This document shows, piece by piece, positions 15,901-55,974 of a DNA stretch of 64,000 nt. The notes beneath the pieces are model-generated. The model made no database searches, was not told where the DNA came from, and saw only the letters and a list, made by a program, of their open reading frames with translations. The DNA is from Candidatus Dojkabacteria bacterium (GTDB lineage: Bacteria; Patescibacteriota; Dojkabacteria; SC72; JAHDCA01). Numbering within the stretch: the first letter of the stretch is position 1; every line of letters begins with the position of its first letter. The stretch lies in NCBI GenBank assembly GCA_030583845.1, contig CP129478.1:407175-471174 (forward strand), given 5' to 3'. The position numbers and the translations under genes are program-made.

Positions 15901-16854
15901 GTAGAAGCCTTCAACATACTGCAATCTTCGGATCAAAGACATCTTCTTTGCCTTTGATTTCTGATTCTTGATCTGGTGCTTAAGGTTTGAGACCTCTCCA
16001 TCGAGGTCAATCTTATCCAAAAGCTCCTGAATAGCCTCAGCACCCATCTTTGCTTTGAAGAAGAGCAGGTCACGATCCTCAAGGTCAACATACTCATCTT
16101 CTGTAATTATTGTGCCTACTGTTACCTCTTTTAGAAGCTTCATCAGTTTTGTATAGAAGGTCTCGATCGACTCCTCTCGCTCTGCAAACTCGCGTCGAAC
16201 CTTCGCAACTTTCTGGCTCCTCTTATGCTCGATCTGACTTGCCTTAAATTCTGCCTTTGACTTATCTTTCTCTTTCTTGCCACTCTGCTTGATCTGACCA
16301 TCAAATTCATCGTTCACTTCCTTAAGCGCAGCTTCCAATTCTGTATCCAGTGTCTTTCGATCTTCTGCGAGATACTCTTCAGCAGCCTTTACCTTCACCT
16401 CTCGGGACTCATTGTCCACTTCAACAACCATATATCTGGTGTAGTAAACAACTGAGAGCATCTTCTTGTGTGACATATCGAGAACGATAGACATCTTGTT
16501 TGGGACACCGTATGCAAACCATACATGTGTTACAGGTACTGCGAGGTCGATGTGACCCATTCGCTCGCGTCGCACATCTTTTCGAGTTACCTCTACACCA
16601 CACTTATCACAGATAATGCCCTTGTATCGTACTTTCTTATACTTACCACAGAAGCATTCATAATTCTTGGTAGGACCGAAGATCTTCTCACAGAAGAGAC
16701 CCTCTGGCTCCATCCTATATGTTCGGTAGTTAATGGTCTCGGCTTTTGTAACCTCACCATATGACCACCCTTTGATCTGCTCCGGCGATGCAAGCGTGAG
16801 CTTCAATGCATCGAAGTCGGAGTAGTCCTGTCTAAAGTTCTTCTTGGTTTTCAT
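12928..16854 (-). CDS. rpoC: DNA-directed RNA polymerase subunit beta' (RpoC)
   Basis: 1308 aa. NADFDGDQMAVH catalytic motif, zinc-binding CxxC N-terminus, full-length collinear. Confidence 0.97.
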   Translation of the reverse strand: MKTKKNFRQDYSDFDALKLTLASPEQIKGWSYGEVTKAETINYRTYRMEPEGLFCEKIFGPTKNYECFCGKYKKVRYKGIICDKCGVEVTRKDVRRERMGHIDLAVPVTHVWFAYGVPNKMSIVLDMSHKKMLSVVYYTRYMVVEVDNESREVKVKAAEEYLAEDRKTLDTELEAALKEVNDEFDGQIKQSGKKEKDKSKAEFKASQIEHKRSQKVAKVRREFAEREESIETFYTKLMKLLKEVTVGTIITEDEYVDLEDRDLLFFKAKMGAEAIQELLDKIDLDGEVSNLKHQIKNQKSKAKKMSLIRRLQYVEGFYQNKIDPSWMIIKTLPVIPPELRPIIALSGGKFATSDLNDLYRRIINRNNRLKRLIEIGAPDVILRNEKRMLQESVDALIDNSHRPSKPMMNNKKLPYKSLTDDLRGKKGIFRRNLLGKRVDYSGRAVIVGDTRLKLHQCGLPKAVALEMFKPFLIHDLIETELAPNIKVAKEMIDAEEDIVWDILEKIIKNKPVLLNRAPTLHKYSIQAFYPVLVEGDSIRIHPLVCKAYNADFDGDQMAVHVLLTEEAIKEGVEKMLSTYNIIDIKNGGVLASPTNDMLLGYFLMTDYKESDKPRMFGSFEEAVRAYDRGLLEIDEAIFVKGKGKVHNTSVGRVMFNQVLPEDYKFINQRIGKSDVDEIIREIKDQYSLDEVVRLLDDLKMLGFKFATTLGFSFSMEDCKVDIDLKKRIQEVEQKDLHLQENYLQGLLTEQEKTNLSVTMWNEFTDELAAEAWASLDKNNPVFEMVTSGANGGQIQARQIMSIKGMARNASGDWIKLPLKGNYREGLGTFEYFVATGAGRKGVADTALRTASSGYLTRKLHDVAHDVIVRMEDCGYDGDGYIIRRADERRLSFEKTIEGRVLAQDLKDGKGKVVLKKNEIISREVAENSEELGINEVFVRSPIVCEAPLGICQMCYGHDIEQNKLVEIGKAAGVIAAQSIGEPGTQMTLKQFHFGGAKKVDITQGLPRVEELFEARTPKAEAEIASVDGKVSITTADDGSSQILITGKKLSERHYIVGNAKKVSVADGDKVTIGQTLFIDSHEKEKQAPFTGVVKIDHGIMTVTGKLDAEELISVLSGFDILVIDGQEVTAGTQITVGSVDPKKLAEYASITRAQEYVIREVQGVFSEQGVTIDDVHIEVIVRQMAKLGMVMDAGDSEYLIGSLVNRYGAELLNDGLREEGKNVALIAPKLLGIKTTALKTESFLSAMSFQEQVRVLTESAITGRVDTLQGMKENVIIGRRIPVGDEARIDIEEAKELYAEPEVITATE

Positions 16855-19800
16855 TGGTCTCCTCGCTCTTCGCGTTAGAAATTAGATCAAGGTTTATGCA
16901 GAGTGCATTCAACTCTTTTACGAGTACCTTGAATGACTCCGGTAAGTTGATATTTTCAATCTTCTCACCATGGATAATTGCTTTGTAAGCCTGGGCACGT
17001 CCCTGGACATCGTCTGATTTGATAGTGAGCATCTCCTGAAGTGCATACGGTGTCCCGTGTGCCTCGAGAGCCCATACTTCCATTTCTCCGAATCTCTGAC
17101 CACCCATCTGTGCCTTACCACCAAGAGGCTGCTGTGTTACCAATGTGTATGGTCCTGTAGATCTAGCATGTACCTTCTCGTCAGCGATATGCTTCAGCTT
17201 CAACACATACTTCATACCTACGGCTACTTTCCTTGGGAACTTCTCACCTGTCCTACCGTCATACAGATCAACCTTCTCTGCCATCTCAAATCCGTTCTTC
17301 TTCAATTCTTCTGCAATCCACTCGCTGTTTACATCCTCAAATGTTGGGATTGAGAGCTTGATTCCAAGCATCTCGGCATAGTGCCCGAAGTGCACCTCAA
17401 GCGCCTGACCCATGTTCATACGCTTTACAAATGTAGGTGTCAGGACAATATCAACTGGCTGTCCATCTGCCGTGAAAGGCATATCCTCAACTGGCCTGAT
17501 AGCTGCGATTGTGTTCTTGTCTCCGTGCCTACCCGACAGCTTATCACCGTAGTCTACTTTCTTGGTCTCTGCGACCCATACCTTCACCTGCTTTAGCACG
17601 CCTGGCTTCAACTTATCGTCATTCTCGACTGATAGCATCTGCGTCTTAACAACAATACCTTTCGATCCGTGGGGAACTCTGAGTGATACATCTCTTACTT
17701 CGCTTGCAGCTTTTCCGAAGATTGCTCTCAAGAGCCTTTCCTCAGCTGTAAGCTCCTGCTCACCTCTTGGTGCTACGATACCGGCGAGGATATCTCCACC
17801 ATTTACACGTGCACCTACTCGTACAACACCCTCGATATCAAGATTGTGCAAGATTCTGATCGCTCACATGTGGGATATCTGCAGTAAGTACCTCAGGTCC
17901 GAGATCTGTATCTCGGAGATCTTGCATATATTCTCGGATATGGATTGATGTCAAAGTGTCATCACGCACAATGCTCTCTGAGATAACTGTTGAGTCCTCA
18001 TAGTTATAACCCTCGTAGAACATCAATGCTGCTCGAATATTTGTACCAAGTGCTAGCTCACCATTGTCCATAGTTGGACCGTCAACGAGCACATCATCTT
18101 TCTTAAATTTCTGTCCTACATCGACACGTGGCCTCTCTGAGAAAGCTGTGTCATAGTTCGACCTGAAGAATTTGGTGATCTTGTACTCCTTCTTTCCAAG
18201 CTTCTTATAATCAACCAAGATATGGTCTGCATCAAGTGTCAGTACTACACCATCATCTTCTGCGAATACACCCCAACCTGACTGTCGAGCAACGATCTCT
18301 TCATATCCTGTACCAACCATAGGTGCCTGCTGCTTAAGCAGAGGGACAGCCTGTCTTTGCTGGTTTGAACCGGTAAGCGCTCGCTTCGAGTCGTCGTGGT
18401 GAACAAATGGGATAAGAGCCATACCTACACCTGCCTGCTGTGCAGCAACCAGGTCGATATAGTTCACCATCTGTACATCCTGCATCAAGAAGTCTCCCCT
18501 ATACCTTACAGGTACGATCTTCTCAAGGATGTTGCCATCTCCGTCCACCTTGATGCCTTGCAAAGTAACATGCGCATCTTTCTCACTTGCTGCATCTAGA
18601 TACTCGATCGACTCTGTGATGAACGATCGAACCTCTAGCTCCTTCATATCCTTATTCTTAGCCAACTTTGTCGCAATTGCGGCTGTGATTACCTCACCCT
18701 CTTTTACGATAAGTTTGCCAGCCTCTTTGATATCTTCTGCGGCTAATCTTCCAACTGCATCCTTGCCATTGTTCTTTACATGATTGCGGACTACGTAGTA
18801 TGGAGCCTCGATAAAACCAAAGTCGTTGATCTTTGCGAACATTGCCAGCTGGTTTACAACACCGATCGATGCGCTTTCTGGGCTGGTGATAGGGTCGATA
18901 CGTGAGTAGTGTGTGTGGTGAACCTCACGGATTGAGAATGTAGCTCTCTCCTTGGTGATACCACCTGGGCCTGATGCGGTTACTTTTCGCTTATTCTCAA
19001 GCTCTGAAAGGATATTTGCCTGATCCATGAACATTGAAAGCTGGTTTGAGCCGAAGAAGTTGAGGATCGCAGCCGAGATAGGCTTGGTGCTGACAAGCAT
19101 TGATGGTGTAAGTTTTGAATCCTCACCGTACATGCTCATCTTATCCTTAATATTCTTCTCTACTCTTCGTACACCTACTCTGAGCTGGTCGATCAATACC
19201 TCACCGACGCTTCGAATTCTTCGATTTGACAATGAGTCGATATCGTCCGCTGTTTCAACGCCGTTGTTGATCTGGATAAGCTTCTTGATTATCAAGATCA
19301 GATCATCTGTGTAAAGCCTGCACTCTGGACCCTCAAGAGGATACTCTGTGCCAAGCTTTCGGTTGAGCTGGTAACGACCAACCTTTCCGAGGTCAAACCT
19401 TCTGTCATTGAAGAAATGTCCCTTAACATACTTCTCTGCACTCTCCAGGGTTACATTCTCATCAGGTCGGAGCTTGTTGTAGACATTGATTACCGCCTCT
19501 TCTCGTGATCTTGTGAAATCTCTTGCCAATGTAGCTTCTATATATTTGTGGTCTTCACTTGTATCTACATCTTTGAAAAGATCCCTTATCTCATCGTCTG
19601 ACTCATAACCCAAAATACGGAGAAGCTCGGTAAGGAGTACCTTTGGTCTCTTCTGTACCAATCTAATTGAGATTACATCGTGCTTGTTTACTTCAAATTC
19701 ATACCACTGTCCTCGTGCTGGCATCAGCTTTGCCGAGTAAAGGTTTCTTGCTGGAGATTTATCACTGATGTCGAAAAGCACTCCCTCTGCTCGCACTACC

Positions 19801-20213
19801 TGATGGGTAACTACTCTGCGTACACCATTAATAACAAAGTAGCCATCTTCAGTCATTAGAGGCATATCTGCCACGAATATCTCCTGCTCCTTGAGCTCAC
19901 CAGTCCTGTTGTTCAGCAGCTGCGAAGTCACGTATACAGGCGCATCATAAGAAAGCCCCTTGTCAGAGGCTTCTTCTACTGTGCGATTTGGCTTCCCATA
20001 TCGAAAATCCTTAAAGTCGAGGGTCCACATCCTCTCCATAGTGTCTTTCACCGGGGTGATTTCGGAGAAGAGGTACTCAAGGCCATCCTTCTTAAATTCT
20101 TCAAACGATTTGATCTGTGCTTCGATAAGATTCGGAAATTGAATCTTTGACAGATCTGTAGCACCGAGGTTGACTCTGCCCGCCCGGTTACTCAAGATTT
20201 GCTTTGCTGCCAT
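16832..20213 (-). CDS. rpoB: DNA-directed RNA polymerase subunit beta (RpoB), split into two overlapping ORFs by an apparent +1 frameshift near 17840-17851
   Basis: The N-part ORF (to about 17838) ends ...ADIPHVSDQNLAQS*. The C-part ORF begins (TTG)HNLDIEGVVRVGARVNGGDIL. Together they align collinearly with E. coli RpoB ...[32 protein letters not shown]. One extra nucleotide within AATCTTG restores the frame. Confidence 0.9.
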
Positions 20214-20607: not shown

Positions 20608-22891
20608 ATGGGAAGACGAAAAAAAGCGACATCGGAAATAACTATTCATAGTAAAGAAACCAGGATTATACTTGGTTTATTCCTCATACTTATAGCGCTT
20701 ACGCTTATCGCTGCACCGTTCAGCACAGAGGCTGTCTTCGAGCCGATTGTATTCTATCTTGGGGTACCATCAGTGGCCTGGGGAATCCTCATACTCCTCA
20801 TGGCAATCCGCGTCATCAAAGGCCCGAGCAAGTTTACAAACTGGAAAACCATTACAGGTACGCTTCTTATCGCTCTAATTCTCAACATCCTCTTCACATT
20901 TTGGATCCCCGAGGAGATATTAAGCAGCCAGACAGACTTCTCCAATGAAGGTGGCCAACTCGGATATATATTGCACACACAGCTAAATGCCATGGTAGGA
21001 GACTTCATCGAATTTGTACTTATTATTGTATTAATAATTGTAGCCTTCTCCCTCATCTCAGGTGTAAGCCTCGAACGGATCTCAAATAGTGTGGGCAACC
21101 TATTCGACAAGCTATTTGAAAGCCGCAATAAACTGAAGCTTCCAAAAGGTGAGGATGACGACGGAATCAGCATTGTAGATAGTATGTTCAAAGGCGGCGA
21201 CGACGATGAGGCTATAGATGAAGCAATTGAGCCAGAGATTGAAAATGGAGCCGAGCCGATCGCGAATATGAGGGCAAAAACCGAGCCAAATATGAGTGCC
21301 AACGTCGAGGCAGAGATCCGTGAAGCAACAGGCAAAGAGTTCGTAGAATCACCAAAGTCAAACAGCAAAGAAAGCAGTGAAGAGGAAAGCAGTACACTTA
21401 GCGAGCCACTATATCCAAACTGGAAATTCCCACCAGTAAACCTGCTCCAGAAGCCACAGGTCAGCCCGCAAGACCCAAACCTACACAAGCGCAACGCCAG
21501 CGTCATCGAGAAAACCTCTGCGCAGCTTCAATATTGAGTCACGTATCAGCAAAGTCACAATCGGCCCAACAGTCGTCCAGTACGCTCTAAGCATTACCGT
21601 AGGCACCAAGGTCGCAAAAGTGCGCAACCTCTCAAATGACATCGCATTGGCTCTAGCGACACCTGAGTCACAAATCCGCATCGAGGCTCCGATCCCTGGC
21701 ACCTCATTAATTGGTATCGAGATCCCCAACCCTACCCCGAATTTTGTATTCATCCGTGAGCTGGTCGAGAAGCTGAATGAAGAGCACGACAAATATAGAC
21801 TACCTATCATTCTTGGTAAGAATGTCGCTGGCCAACCAATCATCAAAGACCTCACAAGTCTCCCCCACCTCTTGGTCGCAGGCGCGACTGGTACCGGTAA
21901 ATCTGTAGGTATCAACTCGCTACTAACTGGTCTACTTATGACCAAGTCTCCTGATGAGCTAAAGCTTATTCTCGTCGACCCAAAGATGGTTGAGATGGCG
22001 CCTTATAATGGCATCCCTCACCTACTCACTCCGGTCATCACAGATATGGAGCTGGTAGTAAATGCGCTACAATGGACTGTCGAGGAGATGTTGAAGCGGT
22101 ATAGGGTATTGAAGCAGATCGGAGCCAGGAATATCACCGAGTACAACGACAAGGTTGGCGATCTAACAATGCCATACATAATAGTAGTAATCGATGAGAT
22201 GGCTGACCTTATGCTTACGACTGGAGTAGATGTAGAGTCAAAGATTGTACGACTAGCTCAGATGGCACGAGCAGTGGGTATTCACCTAATATTGGCAACC
22301 CAGAGACCTTCTGTAGATGTAATCACTGGCTTGATCAAGGCAAACGTGCCGGGTCGAATCGCATACAGCGTATCGACAGCTATCGACTCACGAGTAATCA
22401 TCGACCAGACTGGCGCAGAGACACTGATCGGCAAGGGAGATATGATGTTTAAATCACCTTCTACAGGCAGACCTATCCGTATGCAGGGTGCTTGGACTGA
22501 CACAGTCGACACCGAGGCGATCATCAGCTTTATCAAAGACCAGACGAAAGAGCTTAAGTATAGCGACGCAATCACCCAGCCGAAAGAAGAGAAGTCAGAA
22601 GGCGGAGGAGCTGCTTCGGGTCATTCAGATGACGCAATGTTCGCAGATGCACTCGAGGTAGTTGTAAATGCTCAAAAGGCATCGGCCTCCCTACTCCAGA
22701 GGAGATTGAGGATCGGTTATAACCGGGCTGCCAGATTGATTGATGAATTGCATGAGGCAGGAGCAATAGGCCCACAGGAGGGTAGTTCACCACGAAAAGT
22801 GCTAGTCTCCAGCAGTGATCAGATCTTAGGCGCAGGCAGCAGTGACGTTGATGATTTTGCAGACAACCAGGACGACAAGTCCGACTTCTAG
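20608..22891 (+). CDS. ftsK: DNA translocase FtsK/SpoIIIE (N-terminal membrane domain, linker, motor, gamma domain), with an apparent +1 frameshift near 21521-21529
   Basis: ORF1 (20608..21537) gives 4-TM and linker. The frame-2 reading from about 21440 gives ...FNIESRISKVTIGPTVVQYAL... (the FtsK alpha/beta start), then the Walker motor VAGATGTGKS and gamma domain LLQRRLRIGYNRAARLIDELHEAG. The junction KTSAQ(L)/FNIES matches the FtsK ETLAEFGIEA region after skipping 1 nt. Confidence 0.85.
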
Positions 22892-26835: not shown

Positions 26836-27594
26836 ATGCAAAGCATTACACCCAATAAATCGCTCGGACAGAACTTTTTCACAAACGCATCGCTTGCCAG
26901 AAAGATTGTAGATATTGTAGTCGAGAGTGACCCAAGCCATATCATTGAGATCGGGCCCGGGCCAGGCACATTTACCAATCTGCTCGCCGAACGAGCCCAG
27001 GTGATTGCGATAGAGAAGGATCATCAATTTGAGATGGTGCTGAGTCAGATTGATAACTTAGAGGTGCTGTATCAAGATATCCTAGAGACTGATTTTCATG
27101 AAATTTTAATGAAATGGGAACTCGAGGCTGAGAAAGTTGTGATTTTTGGATCCCTACCCTACAACATCTCTAAACGGATTATCGCCAACAATTTAAGGTC
27201 TAGTCTAATACAAAACCAGTACTACATTATTCAGAAAGAGGTCGCTGAGAAATATATTGCGAATGCCCCACAAAATAATATCCTCTCTTTAACCTCAGAG
27301 GTGTACTCACAATGCAACAAACTCTTTGATATTAGCCCAGGCTCCTTCAACCCACCGCCAAAAGTCACCAGCAGCTTCATTAAATTTACATTAAACGCAA
27401 CAGGTGAAATTCATGAAAATGCCGAGGAGCTTTGCAAATTCATTAGCAGCTCATTCTCCCACCCGCGCAAAACATTAAACAACAACCTTAAAAACTATTC
27501 AGAAGAGATTCATGACAAAGAGCTACTACAGATGCGACCCTCTCAACTTACCCTCGACCAGTATGTAGAATTATTCAATCAGTTGAAAAGATAA
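26836..27594 (+). CDS. rsmA: 16S rRNA (adenine1518/1519-N6)-dimethyltransferase RsmA/KsgA
   Basis: 252 aa. SLGQNFFTNASLARKIVDIV...IIEIGPGPGTFT is the KsgA signature. Confidence 0.85.
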   Translation: MQSITPNKSLGQNFFTNASLARKIVDIVVESDPSHIIEIGPGPGTFTNLLAERAQVIAIEKDHQFEMVLSQIDNLEVLYQDILETDFHEILMKWELEAEKVVIFGSLPYNISKRIIANNLRSSLIQNQYYIIQKEVAEKYIANAPQNNILSLTSEVYSQCNKLFDISPGSFNPPPKVTSSFIKFTLNATGEIHENAEELCKFISSSFSHPRKTLNNNLKNYSEEIHDKELLQMRPSQLTLDQYVELFNQLKR

Positions 27595-27656
27595 TCCAGA
27601 CCGACTAAACTACCAGACAAGCAAACCTTTAAGAGATATTTGATATAATCGCCCAA

Positions 27657-28115
27657 ATGTTTAGGAAAGAAGAAGAACAACCGCAATACGACCTCGGACT
27701 TAAACAGCCCAAGACAAACGCACTCAGACAGTACCGCCAGAAGATTATGTTAAAGCTCAGATTCCTCGAGACCAAAGGATATCTGCGCAGTCCTTATCCA
27801 TGGTTCTTTATATTTCTCTCGATTGCTTTAATAGCTGTGCAGGTCTACTGGATATACTATGCCCTTCCGGAAATGCCTTCGCAGGTGCCAATCTACCTAA
27901 ATCAGCGAGATCTCGCAGAAAGACTTGCCCCAAAGATGCATATCTACATATTCCCAATCTTTTCTGGAATTATCTTTGTAGCTTCATTTATAGTAACCTC
28001 CAAGTTCTATTATCTTATCAAGATTTTATCTAACTACACTTTTGTCATAGCAATCCTCTCAATCACAATGCTAACGCTCGGCCTATTCCAGATAATCGCA
28101 TACTACAATGTATAA
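27657..28115 (+). CDS. hypothetical small membrane protein (3-4 TM)
   Basis: 152 aa, hydrophobic. 8-nt overlap with the downstream GT4 gene suggests co-transcription. Confidence 0.45.
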   Translation: MFRKEEEQPQYDLGLKQPKTNALRQYRQKIMLKLRFLETKGYLRSPYPWFFIFLSIALIAVQVYWIYYALPEMPSQVPIYLNQRDLAERLAPKMHIYIFPIFSGIIFVASFIVTSKFYYLIKILSNYTFVIAILSITMLTLGLFQIIAYYNV

Positions 28116-29391
28116 CGATCAGATAACCGAAATAGCCCAATCACTCATTCTTCAGTTCCAGCACCCACAGATTCCAGTCGAATATGCCCGTTATCTCCAG
28201 TACGCACTTTTCTTCATAATCCCTTGCCTACTTGCTCTCGTCCTCACCCCTATCATCGGCAAGATTGCCAACGACCTAGATATTCGCAACGATACAAAAA
28301 CATTCACGAAAAATAAGCTCAATCGATATGAAAATAACTCCAGAAGGGTTAAGAAGACTCGGATCCCACTGCTAGGAGGGCTTGCGGTTATTCTCCCGCT
28401 CCTGGTTCTAATTCCTCTATTCTTCGGATTTAATGAAATTACTATACCTATACTTATAGCAATATCTATTCTTACAATTGCTGGGATTATCGACGATATC
28501 TACAATCTTCCAGGCAGCATTCAGCTGCTCGCACAGCTAGCAGCCGCCTTCATATTTGCAGCCTCTGTAGTCAATCTTGAAGTAATCAAGATACCTTTTG
28601 ATGGGTTTATCGACCTCTCCATGTACACTTGGAACGGCAATATCATGGGCTTGCCATGGGAATTCGTGTTCCCGGGAGATCTGATCGCAATGTTTTGGGT
28701 AGTTGTAGCTATCAATGCTATTAAATGGGTATCGGGATTAGACGCGCTCATGGAGTCAAATCTGATAGTAGGCTTCTTTATGATATTTATCATTGCTGCG
28801 CGTGGTGAGGCTGCACTAGTGCTCCTGCTCAGCGCCATGCTCACAGGTGGGCTTGCCGGATTTACCTTCTACAACTTCCCACCCGCCAAGATTATGTCGG
28901 CCGCCACTGGCAAGACTGTATACGGCTTCTTGGTCGCTGCCCTAGCACTGCTTAACGACACTAAGCTCGCAATTACGATTTTGATAATGCTGCTGCCACT
29001 GGTCGACTTCCTATTTGTCGTAACCAAGAGGTTTATCGTCAACCGTCCTAAATCTTTCAAGGAGACCATTCTTACACCTTTCAGACTGCTTAGAATCTCT
29101 GATACAAACCATATCCACCACCAGCTTCTTAAGCTTGGCTTCTCGACAAAGCAGATCTTGCTGCTCGAAACCAGCATCACCTTGCTGGCTGGCTCTATCG
29201 CGGTGCTCACGACAGAGGCGTATAGGCTGTTCTTTATCCTCGTGGGTGGTACTTTAATGCTGCTTTTCCTTACCATTCTTCATGTGAAGACTTCGAAGAT
29301 CCAGAAGCCGGTCGAGGAGAAAGAGGACAAGCCGGAAAAGAGACCACCTGAGCCTCCAAAGGGATCCCCGGAGTCGCGGTATTCTTATTGA
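28108..29391 (+). CDS. glycosyltransferase family 4 polyprenyl-phosphate phospho-sugar transferase (MraY/WecA-like)
   Basis: 427 aa, about 10 TM. IAGIIDDIYNLPGSIQLLAQ resembles the MraY/WecA cytoplasmic loop motif. Confidence 0.6.
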   Translation: MYNDQITEIAQSLILQFQHPQIPVEYARYLQYALFFIIPCLLALVLTPIIGKIANDLDIRNDTKTFTKNKLNRYENNSRRVKKTRIPLLGGLAVILPLLVLIPLFFGFNEITIPILIAISILTIAGIIDDIYNLPGSIQLLAQLAAAFIFAASVVNLEVIKIPFDGFIDLSMYTWNGNIMGLPWEFVFPGDLIAMFWVVVAINAIKWVSGLDALMESNLIVGFFMIFIIAARGEAALVLLLSAMLTGGLAGFTFYNFPPAKIMSAATGKTVYGFLVAALALLNDTKLAITILIMLLPLVDFLFVVTKRFIVNRPKSFKETILTPFRLLRISDTNHIHHQLLKLGFSTKQILLLETSITLLAGSIAVLTTEAYRLFFILVGGTLMLLFLTILHVKTSKIQKPVEEKEDKPEKRPPEPPKGSPESRYSY

Positions 29392-29461
29392 TTTGTCATG
29401 TGTGCTCTCTCACTGTGAGCTTGGGTCGAGCTATACAAATGCCAAGCTCAACGTTCGTTCG
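29389..29461 (+). repeat. compound hairpin starting at the GT4 stop codon: 17-bp outer stem (TGATTTGTCATGTGTGC/GCACACATGACAAATCA) enclosing a 9-bp inner stem TGAGCTTGG...CCAAGCTCA
   Basis: Perfect inverted repeats read directly. The inner 35-mer GTGAGCTTGGGTCGA..TA.AAATGCCAAGCTCAA is shared with 35229-35264. Confidence 0.6.
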
Positions 29462-29548
29462 CACACATGACAAATCAGCCGCAAGCCTGAGGAAGAAGTT
29501 TGCCATTTATTAATCAGCTATGCAGTATTATCCGCACGGATTGATACA

Positions 29549-29869
29549 TATTCTCAGGTAGGCTTCTTTATAAGACTACGAGACTTGGACTCATTTATAA
29601 GTAATTTCTTTGAGCTGGCTGGCTCTCGAAAAGAGCATTGGGTTCATCAATAATGTCAGAGGCTCGACATGAACCCACCGCGAGTTGAGAGTGAACAATA
29701 CTTAAGATAAATATATACTCAGGTAGGCTTCTTTATAAGACTACGAGATTTGGACTCATTTATAAGTAATTTCTTTGAGCTGGCTGGCTCTCGAAAAGAG
29801 CATTGGGTTCATCAATAATGTCAGAGGCTCGACATGAACCCACCGCGAGTTGAGAGAGCCAGCCAGCTC
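29549..29869. repeat. tandem direct duplication (2 x 143 bp, period 165 bp, 1 mismatch) ending in a 17-bp perfect inverted repeat that encloses the ATG at 29834
   Basis: Copy 1 is 29549-29691 and copy 2 is 29714-29856. The inverted repeat TGAGCTGGCTGGCTCTC (29776-29792) / GAGAGCCAGCCAGCTCA (29854-29870) holds a nested stem TGGGTTCAT/ATGAACCCA. Confidence 0.8.
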
Positions 29870-29884
29870 ATATATAATGAACCG

Positions 29885-30595
29885 ATGAAAAAATATCTGC
29901 CACTACTAATAATTGTAATAGTCGTGACGCTGTTCCTATCCGTGGTCCTCTTCACAAGGTCGCAGGAGTCACTATTAAAGAACCTCCCTTATTTCAAAGA
30001 GTCTTATAAAAACACATCTTTATCGATCACATCGCGAAATGGCGTTGCCGATATTATGATAAACGACAAAGAGTATGGTGAGACCCCGCTGGCGATTGAA
30101 GAGCTAACAGAGGGCAGGTATGAGGTAATCCTAGAAAAGAAAAGCTCAGAAGATGACAGCTCATTTTATGAGCCGATTGCACTATTCTTGGATTTATACA
30201 GGAATACTGAGGCTATCATCGATCTAGAGATTGCACCGGGTGGTTACAAGGCAGGATATGTACTTTACTACACTCCCGCACCACAAGCTGAGGCACAGAC
30301 AGGATTTATTACTGTGGAATCAAACAGCTCTAAGAGCAGAATGCTGCTAGATGGAGATTATTATAGCGACCTCCCGATCTCAGTTGATGAGCTCGAGGAG
30401 GGTGAGTATAAAATGAAAATTGAATCAACAGGGTATGAATCTGTTGAAGTTCCTATTATTATCAGACAGGGATACAATCTGAATGTAAGTACATTTCTAC
30501 TACCTATCCCAACTAATTTAGAGAAGCCTGCCCAGCCAGAAAGCGAGAATAGCGACTCGGATGCTGAAGCGCAGGATGAAGGAGGTGCCGAGTAA
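29885..30595 (+). CDS. PEGA-domain protein with N-terminal TM anchor (track ORF from 29834; likely start MKKYLPLLIIV at 29885)
   Basis: Two PEGA-like repeats (SITSRNGVADIMINDKEYGETPLAIEELTEGRYEVILEKK; ITVESNSSKSRMLLDGDYYSDLPISVDELEEGEYKMKIESTGY). Its stop overlaps the next gene's start (TAAATG). Confidence 0.5.
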   Translation: MKKYLPLLIIVIVVTLFLSVVLFTRSQESLLKNLPYFKESYKNTSLSITSRNGVADIMINDKEYGETPLAIEELTEGRYEVILEKKSSEDDSSFYEPIALFLDLYRNTEAIIDLEIAPGGYKAGYVLYYTPAPQAEAQTGFITVESNSSKSRMLLDGDYYSDLPISVDELEEGEYKMKIESTGYESVEVPIIIRQGYNLNVSTFLLPIPTNLEKPAQPESENSDSDAEAQDEGGAE

Positions 30596-33500
30596 ATGGC
30601 AAAAGATGAATTTAAACATGTAAAAACTTCTACGCTAATCTCTGTGGTTATTCACGGGGCAAATGACTTCGGATACAAGCTTTCTCGAACATTGGCCGAG
30701 CAAGGCAGCAGGGTTATTGTCGTTGATAATTTCAATAAAGATAGCAAAAACTGGGTCACCAAGCTGAAGCGACTCGAGAGGTGCGATTTCGTAGACTTCC
30801 AGGGTATTGAAGAGCTTTTCACAACACTTGGGCGATTCGATTATCTCTTCTACCTGCAGAATCAGTATCTAAATAACACAACCGAATTCAATAGCACACA
30901 GTTCCTTGCCGAATCAAACAACCTAAACATAGTACTCAAGAATGCCCAAAAATATAAGGCAAAGGTGAGTCTTGTCACAACTGTGCACTTTAACAAGATT
31001 GCAATTGAAAATAGCTTCCGTAACAAAGATTACCATCCATCCCCCTACTCCGCCGAGGAGATTCAGAAATATTCCGAGACGGTCACCGCTGAATTTCACG
31101 ATAAATCAAAGTTGAATGTAAGAATCTTGCGGCTCGGTGCTCTCTTGGGTGACAAATATCATACAACCGAGGATAAAGAGCTAAGCACATTAATCCATGA
31201 AGGTGTAACTAAATCTGAGATCGTAATCCAGGGCGAAGGACTGACAAACCATTACCTTGTACACCCAGAGGATGCCGTTTACGGCATTTTGAAGCTTACC
31301 TTCACCGGAGAGACCAATGGTGAGGTTATCACATTGGCACAGGAGAGACCACTTACCACTCTTTCGATTGCATATAAGCTGCTTGAATTAAATGTCTCTG
31401 CGACGAAGATCAAATTTGCCAAGTCAAAAGATAACGATTTTCTATTCCAGGAGATATACACACCTGCACCATTCGCTACTGAGTATGGATGGTCTGCTCA
31501 AAGAACAATTGATGAATCATTTACAGAGGCAATTAAAGCCCTCTACAAAGCCGAGAATAAGAAATGGGATATTGAGAAAGATAGAGAGATCGAGATCGAA
31601 AGCGCCGCCGAGGCCGACAAGATAAAAACTAAGCATACTGCTAAGGTTGAGAAGACATCATTGGGTCGATTTTTCGACAAGATACTCTCTCCATTTCGAG
31701 CCCTATTTGCCAAGATTGGTGGCAATGAGCTGGATGTTTTCAACTTCCGCAATATAGCTTTCTTCACAGTCGGAGTGATTCTACTAGGCTTGGTGTCATA
31801 CTTCTTTATAACTCCAGTCGCTGTGTTAGGCATCGACGGCTACCGTATCGCCAGAAATACTAAGCAGACCTATGCACAGATTCAGGAATTAGACTTCGAA
31901 GGCGCAGAGGAGACTGTTAACTCTATGAGCAACGACTTTGAGCGCGTGGAAACAAGCACTAAGAGGCTTGAATGGGTATTTATAGTAACGCGACAGGAAG
32001 AGCTGTATAAAAATGTAAATCAACTACTATTTGCGACAGGCTATGCACTGCAGGGAGCTGAAGATATGGTCTCGGCATTGGAGCCGTTTGCCATGTATAT
32101 GAAAGAGTTTGAGCCAGCGGTTTCGTTTGGCGGAGAGAATAGAACCAACCCGGTCGAATATACCCAGTATCTAGAGCAGATGAAAGAGAACAGGTCTAAG
32201 CTCGAGACAGCCTCATACAACCTCACTCTGGCATCTAGTATCGTAGATTCTCTTGAGATACAGGAATTTCCAAAGGCAATCCAGCCAAGAGTCGCCGAAT
32301 TGAAATCAATGAACCGCGAGGCAAGCGAACTAATTACCCCATTCCAGAAGACATTGATCTTCTTGCCAGAGCTGCTTGGCAGTGAAGGAAGACAGCGATA
32401 CCTAATACTGCTACAAAATCCTTCAGAGCTCCGCTCAACTGGTGGATGGCTTTCAAGCTATGCAATCCTCGGGATCGAGAACGGTCAGGTAAGGCAGCTA
32501 GATGTCGATGACATCTACAATCTGGATGGTCAGCTATCGCTCGCAGATAAGAGCTACAGCGCCCCAGAAGATATGCAAGAGGCTCTCGACATCGATGAAT
32601 GGAGCATGTCCACCTCAAACTGGAGTCCTCACTTCCCCACTACAGCTGAAAATGCCAAGTTTTTCATCCAGGAATCTGGCAAAGCATATGAAGTTGATGG
32701 TGTAATCGCACTAGACGTTACATTTATACAGATGCTTCTGGAGAAATGGGGAGGAATTGAGGTACAGGGAGAAGATGAAGAGGTCACAGCTGACAACCTC
32801 TATTCGAAGATTTTTGCAATCCACGATGAGTTCACGCCGGGATCAAGGCAGAAGGCAACATTTATCGCTAACTTGGCAGATGCAGTGCTGAAGAAAGTGA
32901 TCTCATCGGGCTCAGATGGATACCGAGATATGTCAGAAGTATTCCTGCAGGCATTAGATCAGAAAAATATCTTGATCACCTTGAATAACCGCGAGGCCAA
33001 CCAATATTTCTCTGACCAGGGCTGGAGCGGCACAATTACCGAGGGGTATGTGGGCACACCGATCCCTGTCGAGTGGAACTGGGGAGCCAACAAGGCCAAC
33101 CTCTATCTGGAGAAAACCCACTCGCTAAATATGGATATTAAAAATGAAGACACTGTTAACTATACATATGTACTGGCGGTGAAGAACGAGTCAGAAGAGG
33201 ATAAGTATCCAGAGGGTGAGTATCGAAATTGGTTTAGGGTGTATCTACCTGAGAATGCCGACGTTAAGAGCGTGATTGGCTTTGACGACGACGATTACAC
33301 CGTATACCTAGAGGATAGATTTACGGTGGTCGCGGGCTGGTTTACTACCGAAATTCAATCAACAAACCAGGTGGAAGTTAACTACACACTAACCCGCGAT
33401 GAAAGCTCAACCGACCCATTCCCGATAAATATAGCAAACAACAGTATCAGTACCGAGATCAAGCTGTATAAACAGCCTGGGATATTCGATGATGTATACC

Positions 33501-33634
33501 AGCTAGACGTAAGCTACCCTGACACTTGGGCAATTATTGAAAATGGTGATATGCAGGAGGGAGTCTCTAAGCTGAGCAATAGATATGAACTGGAGAGCGA
33601 CATTGAGGTAGATCTACTGTGGGAGTACCGTTAA
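30596..33634 (+). CDS. large envelope protein: N-terminal NAD-dependent epimerase/dehydratase-like Rossmann domain, one TM, C-terminal DUF4012-like domain
   Basis: 1012 aa. VVIHGANDFGYKL...GSRVIVVDNF (degenerate GxxGxxG). TM IAFFTVGVILLGLVSYFFITPV. C-terminal LILLQNPSELRSTGGWLSSYAILG recalls the DUF4012 signature (from memory, unverified). Confidence 0.5.
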   Translation: MAKDEFKHVKTSTLISVVIHGANDFGYKLSRTLAEQGSRVIVVDNFNKDSKNWVTKLKRLERCDFVDFQGIEELFTTLGRFDYLFYLQNQYLNNTTEFNSTQFLAESNNLNIVLKNAQKYKAKVSLVTTVHFNKIAIENSFRNKDYHPSPYSAEEIQKYSETVTAEFHDKSKLNVRILRLGALLGDKYHTTEDKELSTLIHEGVTKSEIVIQGEGLTNHYLVHPEDAVYGILKLTFTGETNGEVITLAQERPLTTLSIAYKLLELNVSATKIKFAKSKDNDFLFQEIYTPAPFATEYGWSAQRTIDESFTEAIKALYKAENKKWDIEKDREIEIESAAEADKIKTKHTAKVEKTSLGRFFDKILSPFRALFAKIGGNELDVFNFRNIAFFTVGVILLGLVSYFFITPVAVLGIDGYRIARNTKQTYAQIQELDFEGAEETVNSMSNDFERVETSTKRLEWVFIVTRQEELYKNVNQLLFATGYALQGAEDMVSALEPFAMYMKEFEPAVSFGGENRTNPVEYTQYLEQMKENRSKLETASYNLTLASSIVDSLEIQEFPKAIQPRVAELKSMNREASELITPFQKTLIFLPELLGSEGRQRYLILLQNPSELRSTGGWLSSYAILGIENGQVRQLDVDDIYNLDGQLSLADKSYSAPEDMQEALDIDEWSMSTSNWSPHFPTTAENAKFFIQESGKAYEVDGVIALDVTFIQMLLEKWGGIEVQGEDEEVTADNLYSKIFAIHDEFTPGSRQKATFIANLADAVLKKVISSGSDGYRDMSEVFLQALDQKNILITLNNREANQYFSDQGWSGTITEGYVGTPIPVEWNWGANKANLYLEKTHSLNMDIKNEDTVNYTYVLAVKNESEEDKYPEGEYRNWFRVYLPENADVKSVIGFDDDDYTVYLEDRFTVVAGWFTTEIQSTNQVEVNYTLTRDESSTDPFPINIANNSISTEIKLYKQPGIFDDVYQLDVSYPDTWAIIENGDMQEGVSKLSNRYELESDIEVDLLWEYR

Positions 33635-34110: not shown

Positions 34111-35205
34111 ATGCAGCAAAGAAAAAAAGAGGAAGTAATCAAGCAGCTACTGGTCAAAGGAAGAGACCAGGGTTTCTTAACTCAGGATGATATCCTGATG
34201 GAGGTTCCTCATGCTGAAGATGATCTTGAGCTCCTCGACGAGATTTTCACATTGCTACAAGATGAGTCGATAGCCGTCCTCGAAGGCGAAGAGGTCCAGG
34301 AGACCAGCCGCGACGAGGAGACATTAACACTCGAGAAGAAGATCCGTATCCTCAAGACAATCCAATCAACCATCTCAACCGACGCAATCCGCTCATACCT
34401 GCATGAGATCGGCAAGATCCCTCTATTGACCGCTGAAGAAGAGGTTATCCTAGCCAAGAGAATCGAAGCCGGCGACAGGGAGGCAACCCAATTGCTGATC
34501 ACAGCCAACCTCCGATTGGTAGTGAGCATCGCCAAGAAATATGCAAAGCGTGGCCTCGAGCTACTCGACCTGATCCAGGAAGGCAACATGGGCCTGATGC
34601 GAGCCGTCGAGAAATTCAACTATAAGAAGGGCTTCAAATTCTCCACCTATGCAACTTGGTGGATCCGACAAGCTATCACCCGTGCAATCGCCGACCAGGC
34701 CCGCACGATCCGTATCCCTGTACATATGATCGAGACAATCAACAAATTCAACAAGGTTCAAGCGACTTTAACCAGCAAGCTTGGCCGCAAGCCTACAGAT
34801 GACGAGATCGCCAAAGAGATGGGCATCGACCTCGCAAAGGTCGCCGAGATTAAGAAGATTTCTCAAAACCCAACCTCCCTCTCTACCCCTATCGGCGAGG
34901 ATAAGGAAAACGAGCTTGCAGACATTTTGTCAGATGACTGGTCAAAATCACCTGAGCAGATAGCAACTACCGAGTACCTCCGAAACCAGATGAAGCTTAT
35001 CTTGGACACTCTCCAAGATCGTGAGCGCCGAGTGTTGTCTTTGCGATTTGGTCTGGATGATGGTGTGACTCGAACCTTGGAAGAGGTTGGCCGCGAGTTC
35101 GGTGTAACTCGTGAGCGTATTCGTCAGATCGAAGCAAAAGCCCTGAAGAAGCTTAAAGAGAGGTCTATGCAGAAGCAGTTGGAGGATTATATATCTATCG
35201 ATTAG
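34111..35205 (+). CDS. rpoD: RNA polymerase sigma factor RpoD/SigA (regions 1.2, 2, 3, 4)
   Basis: 364 aa. [20 protein letters not shown], ...[16 protein letters not shown]...[24 protein letters not shown], and a region 4 [30 protein letters not shown]. Confidence 0.92.
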
Positions 35206-35288
35206 GTTTCCTGATTTTCTCGCTCGAGGTGAGCTTGGGTCGAAATATAAATGCCAAGCTCAATTCTCGCTCTAAATTCAGGAAACCT
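35205..35288 (+). repeat. compound hairpin starting at the rpoD stop codon: 11-bp outer stem AGGTTTCCTGA/TCAGGAAACCT enclosing an inner GAGCTTGG...CCAAGCTC stem (same 35-nt core as 29412-29447)
   Basis: Read directly. A degenerate third copy lacking the central 24 nt is at 35466-35490 (CGAGGTGAGCT|CAATTCTCACTC). Confidence 0.6.
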
Positions 35289-35588
35289 AACATGGGTTGC
35301 AGAACGAAAAGTCTCGCTCACAAGTCACCAAAATTAGCATGCCGTTGCATAAATGGTGGCTCACTTACACAAGTAACGTGAGGGCAATGACCTCCATAGC
35401 GAAGAGGAGTAATATACACGAGACTTGGGAACCACGTCGAAGAATTCTGCTTCCACGAAGCTTCATTCGAGGTGAGCTCAATTCTCACTCACAAGACTTG
35501 TAGGTTAACAGAGGGATATACGAACAAGGTATTCATCAGTGACGTGGGGGAAGATTTTCGAGACTTTGCTCGCAACGTCGAGAAAATT

Positions 35589-52441: not shown

Positions 52442-54580
52442 ATGAACCTGAATTCGAATGTTAAAAAAATTGTAATAAAGCCCGATCACGAGCTTACGGA
52501 TGTGATTCGCCAAGTCAAGAATGCGAAGGAGGATCGCATTGTCCTCACATTCACAGAGAAATCTGACATGCTTGTTAGCCCTATCAATATGAAGGTGCTT
52601 CTCGAAGAGGCCGATGCAAATAGCAAGCTACTTGTAACCCAGATCATCCAAAACCCGGCCGGTATCCGCAACTCGAAAGCGGCGGGAATTATCACAACCG
52701 ACAGCTCTGGTGCAGTTGACGAGGATATGTGGAGTAAAGCAGAAGAGACCTTCTCAAATCGTGTCGCAGCATTTCAGAGTCAGCTTAAGTCAAACCGTAC
52801 AACCCATCAGGACACAGATACACATGCTGATCCTGAAGCAGATATTATTGTAGACCTCACCGACACAGTCAAAAATCCTGTCACCGAGATTGAATTTGAA
52901 GATCAGAACCCTGAGCTGACCCATGTTGAGGAGCTAACCACTGAATCGTCTCCAGATGAGATGAGCGATCTACAGGTAGATGATATGAGCCATAAAGCTG
53001 AAGAGGTTGCAGGTGAGGAGAATACACCGGACATGCAAAGCCAGACAAATCAGCCCGAGACAGCATTTAGCAAGCGAGTAAACAGCGCGATTAAACGCTC
53101 ACAGGAAGAGCTAATCCGCAAGAGCAGCAGCAAGAAGGTTGTAAGCGAAAGCGGAGTTGCGATCGCACTCGACAGCGACATTGACGATCAATCAGCTGGT
53201 AGTGCAAATTCTATGGTCGGTAAAGATTTCAATGCAATGACGCCGGGTGGGATGGCAAAGGCACCATCAAAGATCCCTGCAATGTCTGGCGCACAGATGT
53301 TTAAAGCACCTGGTGGCAAAGCTACATCTGGAGCCAAGTTCAATTTCGCAAATTTGAAGCTACCAAAGATAAATATGGCCGCCCTAAAGAAGAAAGGTCC
53401 TATTGTTGCGATCCCCATTGCTTTAGTTGCCCTATTCATCGTCTACATCGTGTATGCAAACGCTCCTTTTGCTTCTGCCAAGATCTATATTGAGAGTCGT
53501 CCAGTCGAGGTCGAGGAATCATTCACCGGTAAGCCAGATGTCACAGAATTTAATGTCGAAGATAGAATGGTCCAGATCAAGCAGGAAGTGGTAGAAAAGG
53601 GTCGCTCCGACTCTCGTGAGACCACCCAGACAGCACGTCGTGGTGAGAAGGCCGATGGTATAGCAAATGTGAGATGCTATCTAAATGGATCTCTAGAGCT
53701 AGCCGAGGGTACAGTGATAACTGCGCCAAACGGTCTCCAGTTCCAGACCTTAGCCACAGTGACTATGATCTGCCCATGGCAGGAAACTGTCGCAGTCGAA
53801 GCACTGGCTGTTGGAAGCGAATACAACATGCAATCGGGTACACTGTTCTCGGTACCAAACTACAATGTAAACCAGGTGGTTATGCAAAATGATCTTTCGG
53901 CATTTACAGGTGGCTCAAGCGAGGAGTACCAGGTGGTTGGACAGGTCGACATCGACAACGCCAGCAAAGATCTACAGGAATCAGCCTTCGAAGAGGCTAA
54001 TAGTGAGCTTCAAGAGATGGCAAAAGATGGCTGGAAAATTATTGATTCAACGATCAAGAACGAGGTTGTTGGTGGTGTGAAAAGCGATTACCCTGTCGGT
54101 GCAGAGGCGGAAATAGTTAATGTGTCTTTGGAGACTAAATCAACCGCGCTTTATTATAAGGAGGATGAGATAAAAGATGTGGGTGAAGAGCTTCTACTCG
54201 AGGCTGCTCGTGAGCAGAATCTGTTCGATTCAGATGAAGATCTTGAGCTGAAGCTTGGTGATGATATTTTAACTGAGGTAAGTGTGGAAAAAGTCGAGGA
54301 CACGACAGTGACAATAAAAGTGAAATCTTCCGGCTCAGTTAAGCCCGACGTCGACAAGAATCAGATCATTGCTGACCTAAAGGGCATGGGCTGGGAAAAT
54401 GGTACAAAGTATCTTGAAGATCTTAACTTCACATCTAAGGACCCTCAATATGAGTTCTCCCCTACCTGGTTCCCAGGATTCTTGTGGAGATTCCCATCAA
54501 AGCAGGGCCGGATCAAGCTCGTAGTCGAAGAAGTTGAGAGACCTGCCGAGGAGAATACGAGTGAGGCGACTGAGGAGTAA
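52442..54580 (+). CDS. hypothetical bitopic membrane protein (cytoplasmic N-domain, acidic linker, TM, large extracytoplasmic C-terminal region)
   Basis: 712 aa. TM IVAIPIALVALFIVYIVYA at about residue 320. No catalytic motif recognised. Directly follows the FtsA-like gene. Confidence 0.5.
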   Translation: MNLNSNVKKIVIKPDHELTDVIRQVKNAKEDRIVLTFTEKSDMLVSPINMKVLLEEADANSKLLVTQIIQNPAGIRNSKAAGIITTDSSGAVDEDMWSKAEETFSNRVAAFQSQLKSNRTTHQDTDTHADPEADIIVDLTDTVKNPVTEIEFEDQNPELTHVEELTTESSPDEMSDLQVDDMSHKAEEVAGEENTPDMQSQTNQPETAFSKRVNSAIKRSQEELIRKSSSKKVVSESGVAIALDSDIDDQSAGSANSMVGKDFNAMTPGGMAKAPSKIPAMSGAQMFKAPGGKATSGAKFNFANLKLPKINMAALKKKGPIVAIPIALVALFIVYIVYANAPFASAKIYIESRPVEVEESFTGKPDVTEFNVEDRMVQIKQEVVEKGRSDSRETTQTARRGEKADGIANVRCYLNGSLELAEGTVITAPNGLQFQTLATVTMICPWQETVAVEALAVGSEYNMQSGTLFSVPNYNVNQVVMQNDLSAFTGGSSEEYQVVGQVDIDNASKDLQESAFEEANSELQEMAKDGWKIIDSTIKNEVVGGVKSDYPVGAEAEIVNVSLETKSTALYYKEDEIKDVGEELLLEAAREQNLFDSDEDLELKLGDDILTEVSVEKVEDTTVTIKVKSSGSVKPDVDKNQIIADLKGMGWENGTKYLEDLNFTSKDPQYEFSPTWFPGFLWRFPSKQGRIKLVVEEVERPAEENTSEATEE

Positions 54581-54588
54581 ACCGACAC

Positions 54589-54732
54589 ATGGTTAAATTG
54601 TGGAAGGCGATTAGGCGAGTCTCTCCAATTCTTAAGGAGTACATGAACGGTGAAATTAGTGACAAAGCGCTTATTGAGAGGCTGGATCTATTTTTTGTGA
54701 AATTTAGTGAGAAGAGCGAACTGGAGATGTAG
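54589..54732 (+). CDS. possible small ORF (47 aa), weak support
   Basis: ATG at 54589. GAGGAG lies 11 nt upstream, which is a long spacer. MVKLWKAIRRVSPILKEYMNGEISDKALIERLDLFFVKFSEKSELEM. Confidence 0.2.
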   Translation: MVKLWKAIRRVSPILKEYMNGEISDKALIERLDLFFVKFSEKSELEM

Positions 54733-54752
54733 GTTGGCACTTAGGTTCACAC

Positions 54753-54766
54753 GGAGAGAAATGGAT
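54753..54766 (-). repeat. att-like direct repeat: copy of the tRNA-Ser 3' end (GGAGAGAAATGGAT on plus; 13/14 match)
   Basis: Reverse complement ATCCATTTCTCTCC matches the tRNA-Ser(GGA) T-arm 3' strand plus acceptor 3' strand. Followed by GGACGCTCGGTCG, which is shared with the copy at 55829. Confidence 0.5.
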
Positions 54767-54830
54767 GGACGCTCGGTCGATGCCCAACTATCGATTACTC
54801 TTAACAAATCTAGTGTGTAAAAAGGTTGGT

Positions 54831-55109
54831 CTAATCCTCTGACCGAACATTGGACACCTTCAGATCCTCTGATTTGTAAAAAAAATACCCACAGTGCTCT
54901 GTAAATATCCCTATTTCCCCTAAGAGCTCATTCTTAATATAAAAGGCATATCTCAATTTCATAGTTGAGTCATCTGGGAATAAAACCTCAACAGTACTAT
55001 TAGCGTCAAAATCAGTCGCTTCTAAGGTTTTACGTGCCTGGCCCGTTCGCTCATATGTATATTTTTCAATTTGTTCAACCCAGTTATCTGGGACAATATT
55101 GCTTACCAT
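54831..55109 (-). CDS. hypothetical protein (cassette ORF between att-like repeats)
   Basis: 92 aa, no motif recognised. Sits between repeat copies at 54753 and 55146. Confidence 0.4.
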   Translation of the reverse strand: MVSNIVPDNWVEQIEKYTYERTGQARKTLEATDFDANSTVEVLFPDDSTMKLRYAFYIKNELLGEIGIFTEHCGYFFYKSEDLKVSNVRSED

Positions 55110-55145
55110 TTTTGTATTATATACTGCTTATACACTTTATCCTAC

Positions 55146-55159
55146 GGAGAGAAAGGGAT
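55146..55159 (-). repeat. att-like direct repeat: exact 14-nt copy of the tRNA-Ser 3' end (GGAGAGAAAGGGAT on plus)
   Basis: Exact match to tRNA-Ser positions 55973-55986. Followed by a conserved block of about 105 nt (55160-55265) homologous to 55829-55937. Confidence 0.55.
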
Positions 55160-55379
55160 GTTTATGCGTGTCACTTCGACCCTCTCAATAAATCAGGGAG
55201 TTGAGCTGCTCCCTGATATACGTACCCCCGCTCGCTTCGCGAAGCAGAGGTTCTCACAATAATCTTCTTCATTGATCTCCAACCATCCAGAGGCTTTCGG
55301 AGATTAAATGCAAAACTACTCTTATAGTTAGTGCAAAAGATACAACAGTTCGTATAGCTCAAAGTAAGATTTTGATGCG

Positions 55380-55781: not shown

Positions 55782-55814
55782 GTTTATAAATATTCATAAA
55801 TAATTTTTGAACTC

Positions 55815-55828
55815 GGAGAGAAAGGGAT
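55815..55828 (-). repeat. att-like direct repeat: exact 14-nt copy of the tRNA-Ser 3' end
   Basis: GGAGAGAAAGGGAT. The adjacent 55829-55937 block contains hairpins (CAGGGAG...CTCCCTG; CTTCGCGAAG palindrome) shared with 55160-55265. Confidence 0.55.
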
Positions 55829-55937
55829 GGACGCTCGGTCGCTTTGCTCCCTCTCTAGATATCAGGGAGTTAAACTGCTCCCTGATATACGTACCCCTGC
55901 TCGCTTCGCGAAGCAGAGGTTCTCACAATAATCTTCT

Positions 55938-55974
55938 CCGTTGACCTGCAACCCGATGGGTTACAGGTCAACGG
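55938..55974 (-). promoter_or_regulatory. 17-bp hairpin (CCGTTGACCTGCAACCC-GAT-GGGTTACAGGTCAACGG) abutting and overlapping the 3' end of tRNA-Ser
   Basis: Read directly. One G-U wobble. Could be a tRNA 3' processing or terminator structure, or an integrase arm site. Confidence 0.4.

Follow-up and report, generated by a model that had tools for sequence, protein, structure and literature searches.

A near-identical direct repeat in a Candidatus Dojkabacteria genome of about 1 Mb (Patescibacteria) exposes a family of undescribed, lineage-specific interspersed extragenic DNA palindromes. The repeat lies in a stretch of 64,000 nucleotides (hereafter the window, in whose numbering positions are given unless a contig is named), part of a 1,036,382-bp contig of a metagenome-assembled genome (locus tags QY318_..., proteins WKZ31507-WKZ31513). 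It occupies the spacer between an MraY-family glycosyltransferase gene and a PEGA-domain gene that is followed by an epimerase-DUF4012 gene (Table 1). The duplication itself is an ordinary recent rearrangement, and the palindromes from which it is built are of greater interest. With moderate confidence, we read the region as a recent strain-specific structural variant that arose by DNA-level, palindrome-driven rearrangement in a nest of palindromes, and we infer that it has no dedicated RNA-regulatory role.

Because rpoB and ftsK appear as frameshift-split genes in the assembly, the duplication was checked as a possible artefact. These splits point to residual indel errors, as would be expected if error-prone long-read assembly had created the second copy, an explanation whose probability we consider close to negligible. 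A de Bruijn simulation of the window at k = 31 forecasts that one unitig ends at 29582 and another starts at 29827. In the Logan contigs of SRR24881069, which are built with the same k, one contig (L003) stops at 29582 and another (L008) begins at 29827. A break at 29582, and not at 29583, means that the k-mer leading from the junction into copy 2 must exist, and the break at 29827 that both the GAGAG-T and the GAGAG-A continuations must exist. Independent short-read contigs thus break at both positions forecast by the two-copy structure, and k-mers leading from copy 1 into the junction and from the junction into copy 2 are both needed in the reads. Both duplication junctions are backed by short reads, and the duplication is real.

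The duplicated unit and the PEGA promoter

The first-pass annotation had described a near-perfect tandem duplication of 143 bp with one mismatch and a period of 165. The near-identity and the period hold (Tandem Repeats Finder score 604), with copies of 144 nt that differ at two sites (29552 T/A and 29584 C/T); the earlier count is right from 29553 onward. A simple head-to-tail duplication is excluded, since the repeat covers 144 of the 165 nt of the period and the 21-nt junction between the copies is unique, with no second occurrence of TGAACAATACTTAAGATAAAT anywhere in the window. The junction can pair imperfectly with the 17-nt linker of copy 1. The copy ends differ as well: copy 1 runs into the junction, and copy 2 into a right arm that is the exact complement of the left arm.

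This right arm completes the palindrome that we call H3. As the first-pass annotation had seen, a 17-bp inverted repeat (TGAGCTGGCTGGCTCTC, 29776-29792, pairing 17/17 with GAGAGCCAGCCAGCTCA, 29854-29870) surrounds a nested 9-bp apical stem (TGGGTTCAT, 29804-12, with ATGAACCCA, 29834-42), and it is completed in copy 2 only, the corresponding part of copy 1 having the left arm and apex and lacking the right arm. Over their full length of 37 nt the H3 arms are 81% complementary. The predicted RNA fold of copy 2 reaches -65.7 kcal/mol (z = -5.6) and that of copy 1 alone is unremarkable (z = -1.5). A 13-nt sequence within the glycosyltransferase coding sequence (GCTGGCTGGCTCT, 29184-29196) is identical to part of the H3 left arm, and 16 nt at this site are 94% complementary to the right arm, possibly by chance in low-complexity sequence.

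The sister strain, represented by contigs from DRR779146 (L001) and DRR859400 (L002), has no mismatch to the window over 26932-29392 (2.46 kb) and 29871-32610 (2.74 kb). Between these identical flanks it has no duplication and instead a single, other palindrome, H2' (arms AGGTAGGCTTCTTTATAAGACTACGAGATTTGGACTCA and TGAGTCCACCTCGAGTAGAATTATAAAGAAGCCTACT), which ends at the same TATATAATGAACCGATG as the window region. Of H2', the window retains the left half alone, followed by the 17-nt linker and H3, and this left half occurs twice (29556-29593 and 29721-29758). Half of an older palindrome, the linker and H3 together make up the duplicated unit. At the stop codon of the glycosyltransferase gene, the sister-strain allele of another palindrome, H1, differs by about 31%, with both arms changed and the stem still perfect. 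A contig from a further sample, DRR779145 (L007), begins at 29871, the first base common to both alleles, which suggests that the two coexist in that sample. The suggestion in the first-pass annotation of a recent duplication at a hypervariable locus is therefore borne out as a strain-level structural polymorphism. The sister species (L029-L032), whose RpoD falls in the same cluster at 90% identity, has a spacer of only 116 nt with an intact promoter and no palindrome. The strain-conserved part of the spacer, missing from the sister species, contains AAGAAGTTTGCC (29492-29504). This sequence is able to pair with the old palindrome's left arm (GGTAGGCTTCTT, 29557-29570), resembles the lost right arm AAAGAAGCCTAC and is paired in a minimum-free-energy fold. 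As read from the sequence, ATATA microhomology occurs in three places: where the upstream spacer ends, at the junction and immediately 5' of the -10 box of the PEGA promoter.

That promoter (Table 1) ends 6 nt before ATG 29885, the start of the PEGA gene. The layout TAGACA, 17 or 18 nt, TATAAT, 6 to 10 nt and ATG recurs upstream of the PEGA gene in 13 Dojkabacteria loci (L011-L023) whose DUF4012 neighbours are only 37-49% identical to that of the window, and the same layout is present in the window, in L001 and L029 (same- or sister-species loci in the same comparison) and in L031. This recurrence argues strongly for a σ70-type promoter that is deeply conserved before the PEGA gene across Dojkabacteria. 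The short distance from -10 to ATG indicates that the PEGA/DUF4012 mRNA is probably leaderless or nearly so, and if transcription begins at about ATG 29885, both the hairpin and the repeats would lie upstream of its start. The right half of H3 adjoins the -10 box and supplies the -35 box and most of the spacer, and the -35 sequence varies: the window has TTGAGA and the sister strain TAGAAT, and the consensus of the genus is TAGACA. Two tandem promoters, one per copy, had been proposed earlier; however, the -10 box is outside the repeat and matches to the consensus within the copies are weak and no better than 9/12, so there is no second copy of the promoter. The conserved PEGA/DUF4012 promoter helps the annotation of promoters and start sites in uncultivated bacteria of the candidate phyla radiation (CPR).

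The other ATG of the region, at 29834, forms the 3' arm of the apical stem, and its use as a start is not conserved: its homologue opens an open reading frame (ORF) of 8 codons in the sister strain and of 13 codons in copy 1. Three third-position differences between H3 and H2' looked synonymous in the frame M[N/S]PPRVE. A small peptide of this sequence, read from the apex ATG, was rejected, as other family members have no ATG or an in-frame stop. A K-turn or box C/D-like reading of GTGA...TCAA was likewise dropped, as these bases merely lengthen the apical stem.

The palindrome family

A whole-window scan for inverted repeats led to a shared internal core in H1, in a hairpin at the rpoD stop codon (I3), in a hairpin between yidC and jag (I4) and, on the minus strand, in H3. 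A covariance model (R1) built from six members finds six members in the window, and further members in relatives. Members are 65-95 nt long, with a basal stem of 16-18 bp that is locus-specific and perfectly Watson-Crick. The core consists of pyrimidine-rich internal-loop strands (TTCTCGCTC-like), GTG, an apical stem of 5-9 bp, a loop of 1-21 nt and then CAA, and it is found at dispersed loci in both orientations.

When 11 members are aligned, 89.5% of cells are paired, both sides of 25 of the 28 pairs show changes, and double changes outnumber one-sided ones by 81 to two. Wobble pairs occur at only one of the 28 pair positions (27/74) and nowhere in the 16-bp basal helix, all 16 pairs of which differ among copies. 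Folding energy is equal on both strands, so that the strand asymmetry tried as a test of RNA function is absent. Judged from these sequences, the pairing pattern is consistent with arms copied from each other as DNA and not with RNA under structural selection. The internal-loop strands co-vary weakly within members, like direct repeats (permutation p about 0.02), which is only a hint.

The rpoD locus provides a second example of strain variation. In the sister strain the left half of I3 is swapped, together with the stop codon (TAG vs TAA), and the sister species has two occurrences of the core at a distance of 192 nt, the 25 nt of the core being the same in both. A neighbouring member of the window has lost its apex at the palindromic TGAGCTCA, and its sister-strain counterpart has the full apex. 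Half-palindrome replacement, apex collapse and an older core duplication thus recur at this locus in two lineages. The yidC-jag member shows only about six substitutions between the strains, and being a hot spot is not a property of all members. At two of the three comparable loci, otherwise identical strains differ mainly at the palindromes.

Several other observations concern the DNA around rpoD. Three short-read contigs of related lineages, L030 (end 8144), L031 (end 8136) and L037 (end 3569), stop inside the core just past the rpoD stop, as one would expect of a sequence that is multi-copy in the genomes concerned. The region of 390-500 nt between rpoD and a convergent gene of 90-96 aa (window 35206-35588; L009 3596-4094) varies strongly between strains and includes a block of about 120 nt without homology. 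In the sister strain this region holds two perfect, interleaved long-range inverted repeats of 22 nt (3619-3640/3899-3920) and 25 nt (3783-3807/4064-4088), pairs about 257 nt apart that have no Rfam match. Inversion as the cause of the non-homologous block was rejected, since BLAST of both strands gave no inverted match.

Searches farther afield were negative. R1 finds no members in 14 other, more distant Dojkabacteria loci; core-pattern scans of viral contigs and of Joint Genome Institute (JGI) metagenome contigs give chance-level apex matches only; and a full-text literature search found no paper on such repeats in Dojkabacteria. Target-site duplications were sought as abutting direct repeats, none of which was consistent (best 0-2 nt in six of eight members). 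The palindromes rewrite stop codons and a promoter -35 box, and they may account for a large share of regulatory and structural variation and serve as strain markers.

Origin of the rearranged region

The palindrome-driven rearrangement that we favour could have taken either of two routes: template switching during replication, induced by the hairpin and of the kind described as quasipalindrome correction (PMC7202029), or unequal exchange at the ATATA microhomology between two module alleles coexisting in the population. The copies indeed resemble alternative alleles of a single module. An intramolecular template switch could have derived one from the other, and slippage or unequal exchange at ATATA would then have joined them in tandem. 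The likely, if putative, consequence is a changed -35 box plus extra structure-forming DNA and RNA between two transcription units, which may block read-through. Some points weigh against this account. Template switching alone cannot give a divergence of about 31% on both arms of H1 within identical flanks, so replacement of the whole module by recombination or mobility would be needed; the core common to dispersed loci implies some mechanism of spreading that is outside the explanation; and we only infer the order of events and the population frequency.

Both the spreading and the allele replacement bear on the possibility, in our view unlikely, that the palindromes are non-autonomous mobile or cassette-like elements whose core is recognized by an enzyme encoded elsewhere (a transposase, HUH enzyme or tyrosine recombinase). 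The linker and H3 would have been inserted into the apex of the older palindrome and then duplicated by the element. Consistent with this, the same core is dispersed in both orientations, whole alleles are swapped between strains with identical flanks, breakpoints fall at the boundary of apex loop and stem or at the core edge, contigs of relatives end inside the core as for a multi-copy sequence, and the internal-loop strands are weakly direct-repeat-like and co-varying. However, target-site duplications were not found, and the "terminal" stems differ in every copy, leaving no common binding site for a transposase. No transposase, recombinase or HUH gene was found by Pfam among about 40 window proteins, and neither the viral and JGI contigs nor the 14 other Dojkabacteria loci contain the family. 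A bolder idea, quite improbable in our estimation, is that the core is recognized by an undescribed system of reduced CPR genomes, linked to recombination or replication and acting on folded single-stranded DNA. If true, palindromes at housekeeping-gene ends would be traded as wholes or halves, along with the stop codon or -35 box, in a form of cassette exchange that resembles attC but involves no known integrase. Such a system would account for alleles that diverge by 31% inside otherwise identical DNA, for breakpoints that fall at the apex or at the edge of the core, and for arms that are always perfect.

The first-pass annotation had offered an RNA role as one reading, with an attenuator, riboregulator or RNase III-like structure folded around ATG 29834. 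As a cis-regulatory RNA in a long 5' untranslated region or in a read-through transcript, the structure would let two left arms alternate on the single right arm and so control translation from ATG 29834 or 29885. The very stable predicted fold (z = -5.6 and -7.2), the contest of two left arms for one right arm and an AGAGG 6 nt upstream of ATG 29834 all fit this idea, and read-through is possible, as no intrinsic terminator is predicted after the upstream gene (scan of 29000-30200). Yet the conserved promoter would put the start of transcription at or beside ATG 29885, downstream of a hairpin that overlaps the -35 box as DNA and whose apical-stem arm contains ATG 29834, itself not conserved as a start. 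The sister species lacks the structure, and the sister strain has a different palindrome in its place. The stems are nearly free of wobble pairs and fold equally on both strands. Rfam, to which the first-pass annotation had pointed, gives no match to the region at gathering or permissive thresholds: at the gathering threshold the window yields only tRNA-Ser, and the permissive scan of 29300-30000 chance-level matches. We therefore regard an RNA role as very improbable. Even a little less credible is a phase-variable switch, in which gain or loss of the 165-bp unit would alter the distance or number of upstream elements and tune the envelope operon. Near-identical copies do favour slippage, the locus is polymorphic in natural samples and the downstream genes are envelope-related, but the genotypes seen are one with two copies and one with an unrelated single palindrome, and the -10 box and start codon are outside the unit. 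Variants with one or three copies were not observed, though k-mer graphs cannot resolve them.

Gene context and known systems

At 494 nt, the spacer between the glycosyltransferase and PEGA genes is among the longest non-coding gaps of the window. The genes flanking palindromes are housekeeping genes with synteny kept across Dojkabacteria, and in a Pfam scan the roughly 40 window proteins were housekeeping or unmatched, with no transposase, recombinase, HUH, RAYT or integrase gene. By exact-protein look-up the species was found in just five sequencing runs; the same look-up held no record of a 253-aa form of the PEGA protein or of the jag protein.

Two essential genes of the window are split in the assembly. 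On the minus strand, rpoB (16832-20213) appears as a pair of overlapping ORFs that meet near 17838-17851, and its conserved motif ...NLDIEGVVRVGARV... carries on in another frame, which indicates a frameshift and most likely an assembly indel error. ftsK is split into four-transmembrane (4TM) and motor parts (20608-22891, junction near 21520-21540), with the FtsK alpha domain running on in a different frame across an apparent gap of 82 nt, a second essential-gene frameshift. Farther downstream, a cluster at 52442-59463 (last rows of Table 1) is of unusual flavour for a housekeeping region.

Table 1. Positions of the palindromes, repeat copies, promoter and genes discussed in the text.
Feature	Position	Strand	Details
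MraY-family (Glycos_transf_4) glycosyltransferase gene	28108-29391	+	WKZ31509.1; PF00953
Palindrome H1, starting on the TGA stop of the upstream gene	29389-29477	+	R1 match 29388-29478, 91.6 bits; family + orientation
Spacer, same in both strains and missing from the sister species	29492-29547	.	
Direct-repeat copy 1	29548-29691	+	144 nt; left half of H2' (29556-29593), 17-nt linker (29594-29610), truncated palindrome without right basal arm (29611-29691)
Truncated palindrome of copy 1	29625-29691	-	R1, 51.9 bits, model positions 15-78
Unique junction between copies	29692-29712	.	21 nt
Direct-repeat copy 2	29713-29856	+	
Complete palindrome H3	29776-29870	-	covariance model, 90.8 bits; family - orientation
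PEGA operon promoter	29850-29878	+	-35 TTGAGA (29850-55), 17-nt spacer, -10 TATAAT (29873-78); 11/12 consensus match
PEGA-domain gene	29885-30595	+	236 aa, MKKYLPLL...; start as called in relatives
Epimerase-DUF4012 gene	30596-33634	+	WKZ31511.1
Palindrome I3, starting on the rpoD TAG stop	35202-35290	+	R1, 93 bits
Collapsed-apex palindrome	35445-35508	+	R1, 31 bits
Short palindrome I4, between yidC and jag	61589-61657	+	R1, 39.8 bits; outside the training set
712-aa protein with Baseplate_J-like domain; SHOCT protein	both within 52442-59463		
SUKH/SMI1 immunity-type protein	55380-55781		
tRNA-Ser, then 20-bp hairpin	55972-56058	-	
Holin-like 4TM domain fused to phosphodiesterase	57421-59463		

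On the defining features compared, the palindromes belong neither to the repetitive extragenic palindromic (REP) sequences, nor to the MITEs (miniature inverted-repeat transposable elements) with the Correia elements, nor to the attC sites of integrons. REPs measure 20-40 bp, with stems conserved within a family and an unpaired head of GTAG or CGTC, and RAYT transposases are linked to many of them (PMC3733652). Like REPs and the bacterial interspersed mosaic elements (BIMEs) that they form (PMC3733652), the window palindromes are short, extragenic and lineage-specific. In both cases most copies lie just 3' of an ORF, in gaps between genes that run the same way or converge; either orientation is seen, and copies group into larger structures. 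The window palindromes differ in their length of 65-95 nt, in the locus-specific basal stem with the conserved part internal and in having no consistent GTAG/CGTC head (H2' starts AGGTAGG, others TGAT, TTAG, TGAG or TCAG), and no RAYT (Y1 transposase) is found among the roughly 40 window proteins.

With the Correia repeat enclosed elements of Neisseria (CREE; PMC2649163) and other MITEs (PMC10969869) they share the form of palindromes of roughly 100 nt upstream of genes that can supply promoter hexamers, fold in RNA and vary in presence by strain. CREE and MITEs have conserved terminal inverted repeats, target-site duplications and many near-identical copies. The target-site duplication of CREE is TA. 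In contrast, each copy of the window family has outer arms of its own, the inner core alone is common, and there is no target-site duplication. Integron attC sites, too, are imperfect palindromes; they are about as long, begin at or on the stop codon that closes the ORF before them, and conserve structure while most of their sequence varies. However, attC sites conserve their basal R''/R' boxes (RYYYAAC...GTTRRRY) and extrahelical bases and work with the IntI integrase, whereas conservation in the window family is apical or internal, and the window has no integrase, attI or cassette-array context. The R-box reading itself was rejected, as the boxes are absent and only I3 has ACCTAAC, at the wrong (3') end. 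Membership among leader RNAs (attenuators and riboswitches) was also set aside, the structure being predicted to lie upstream of the transcription start and not in a 5' leader, and missing from the sister species.

Quasipalindrome template-switch hot spots, at which imperfect inverted repeats are made perfect and clustered complex changes arise within a hairpin (PMC7202029), are of another kind. Quasipalindrome correction is a mutational mechanism and not a family of elements, and it leaves the core shared by dispersed loci unexplained, but it fits the perfect 17-bp arm found in copy 2 only.

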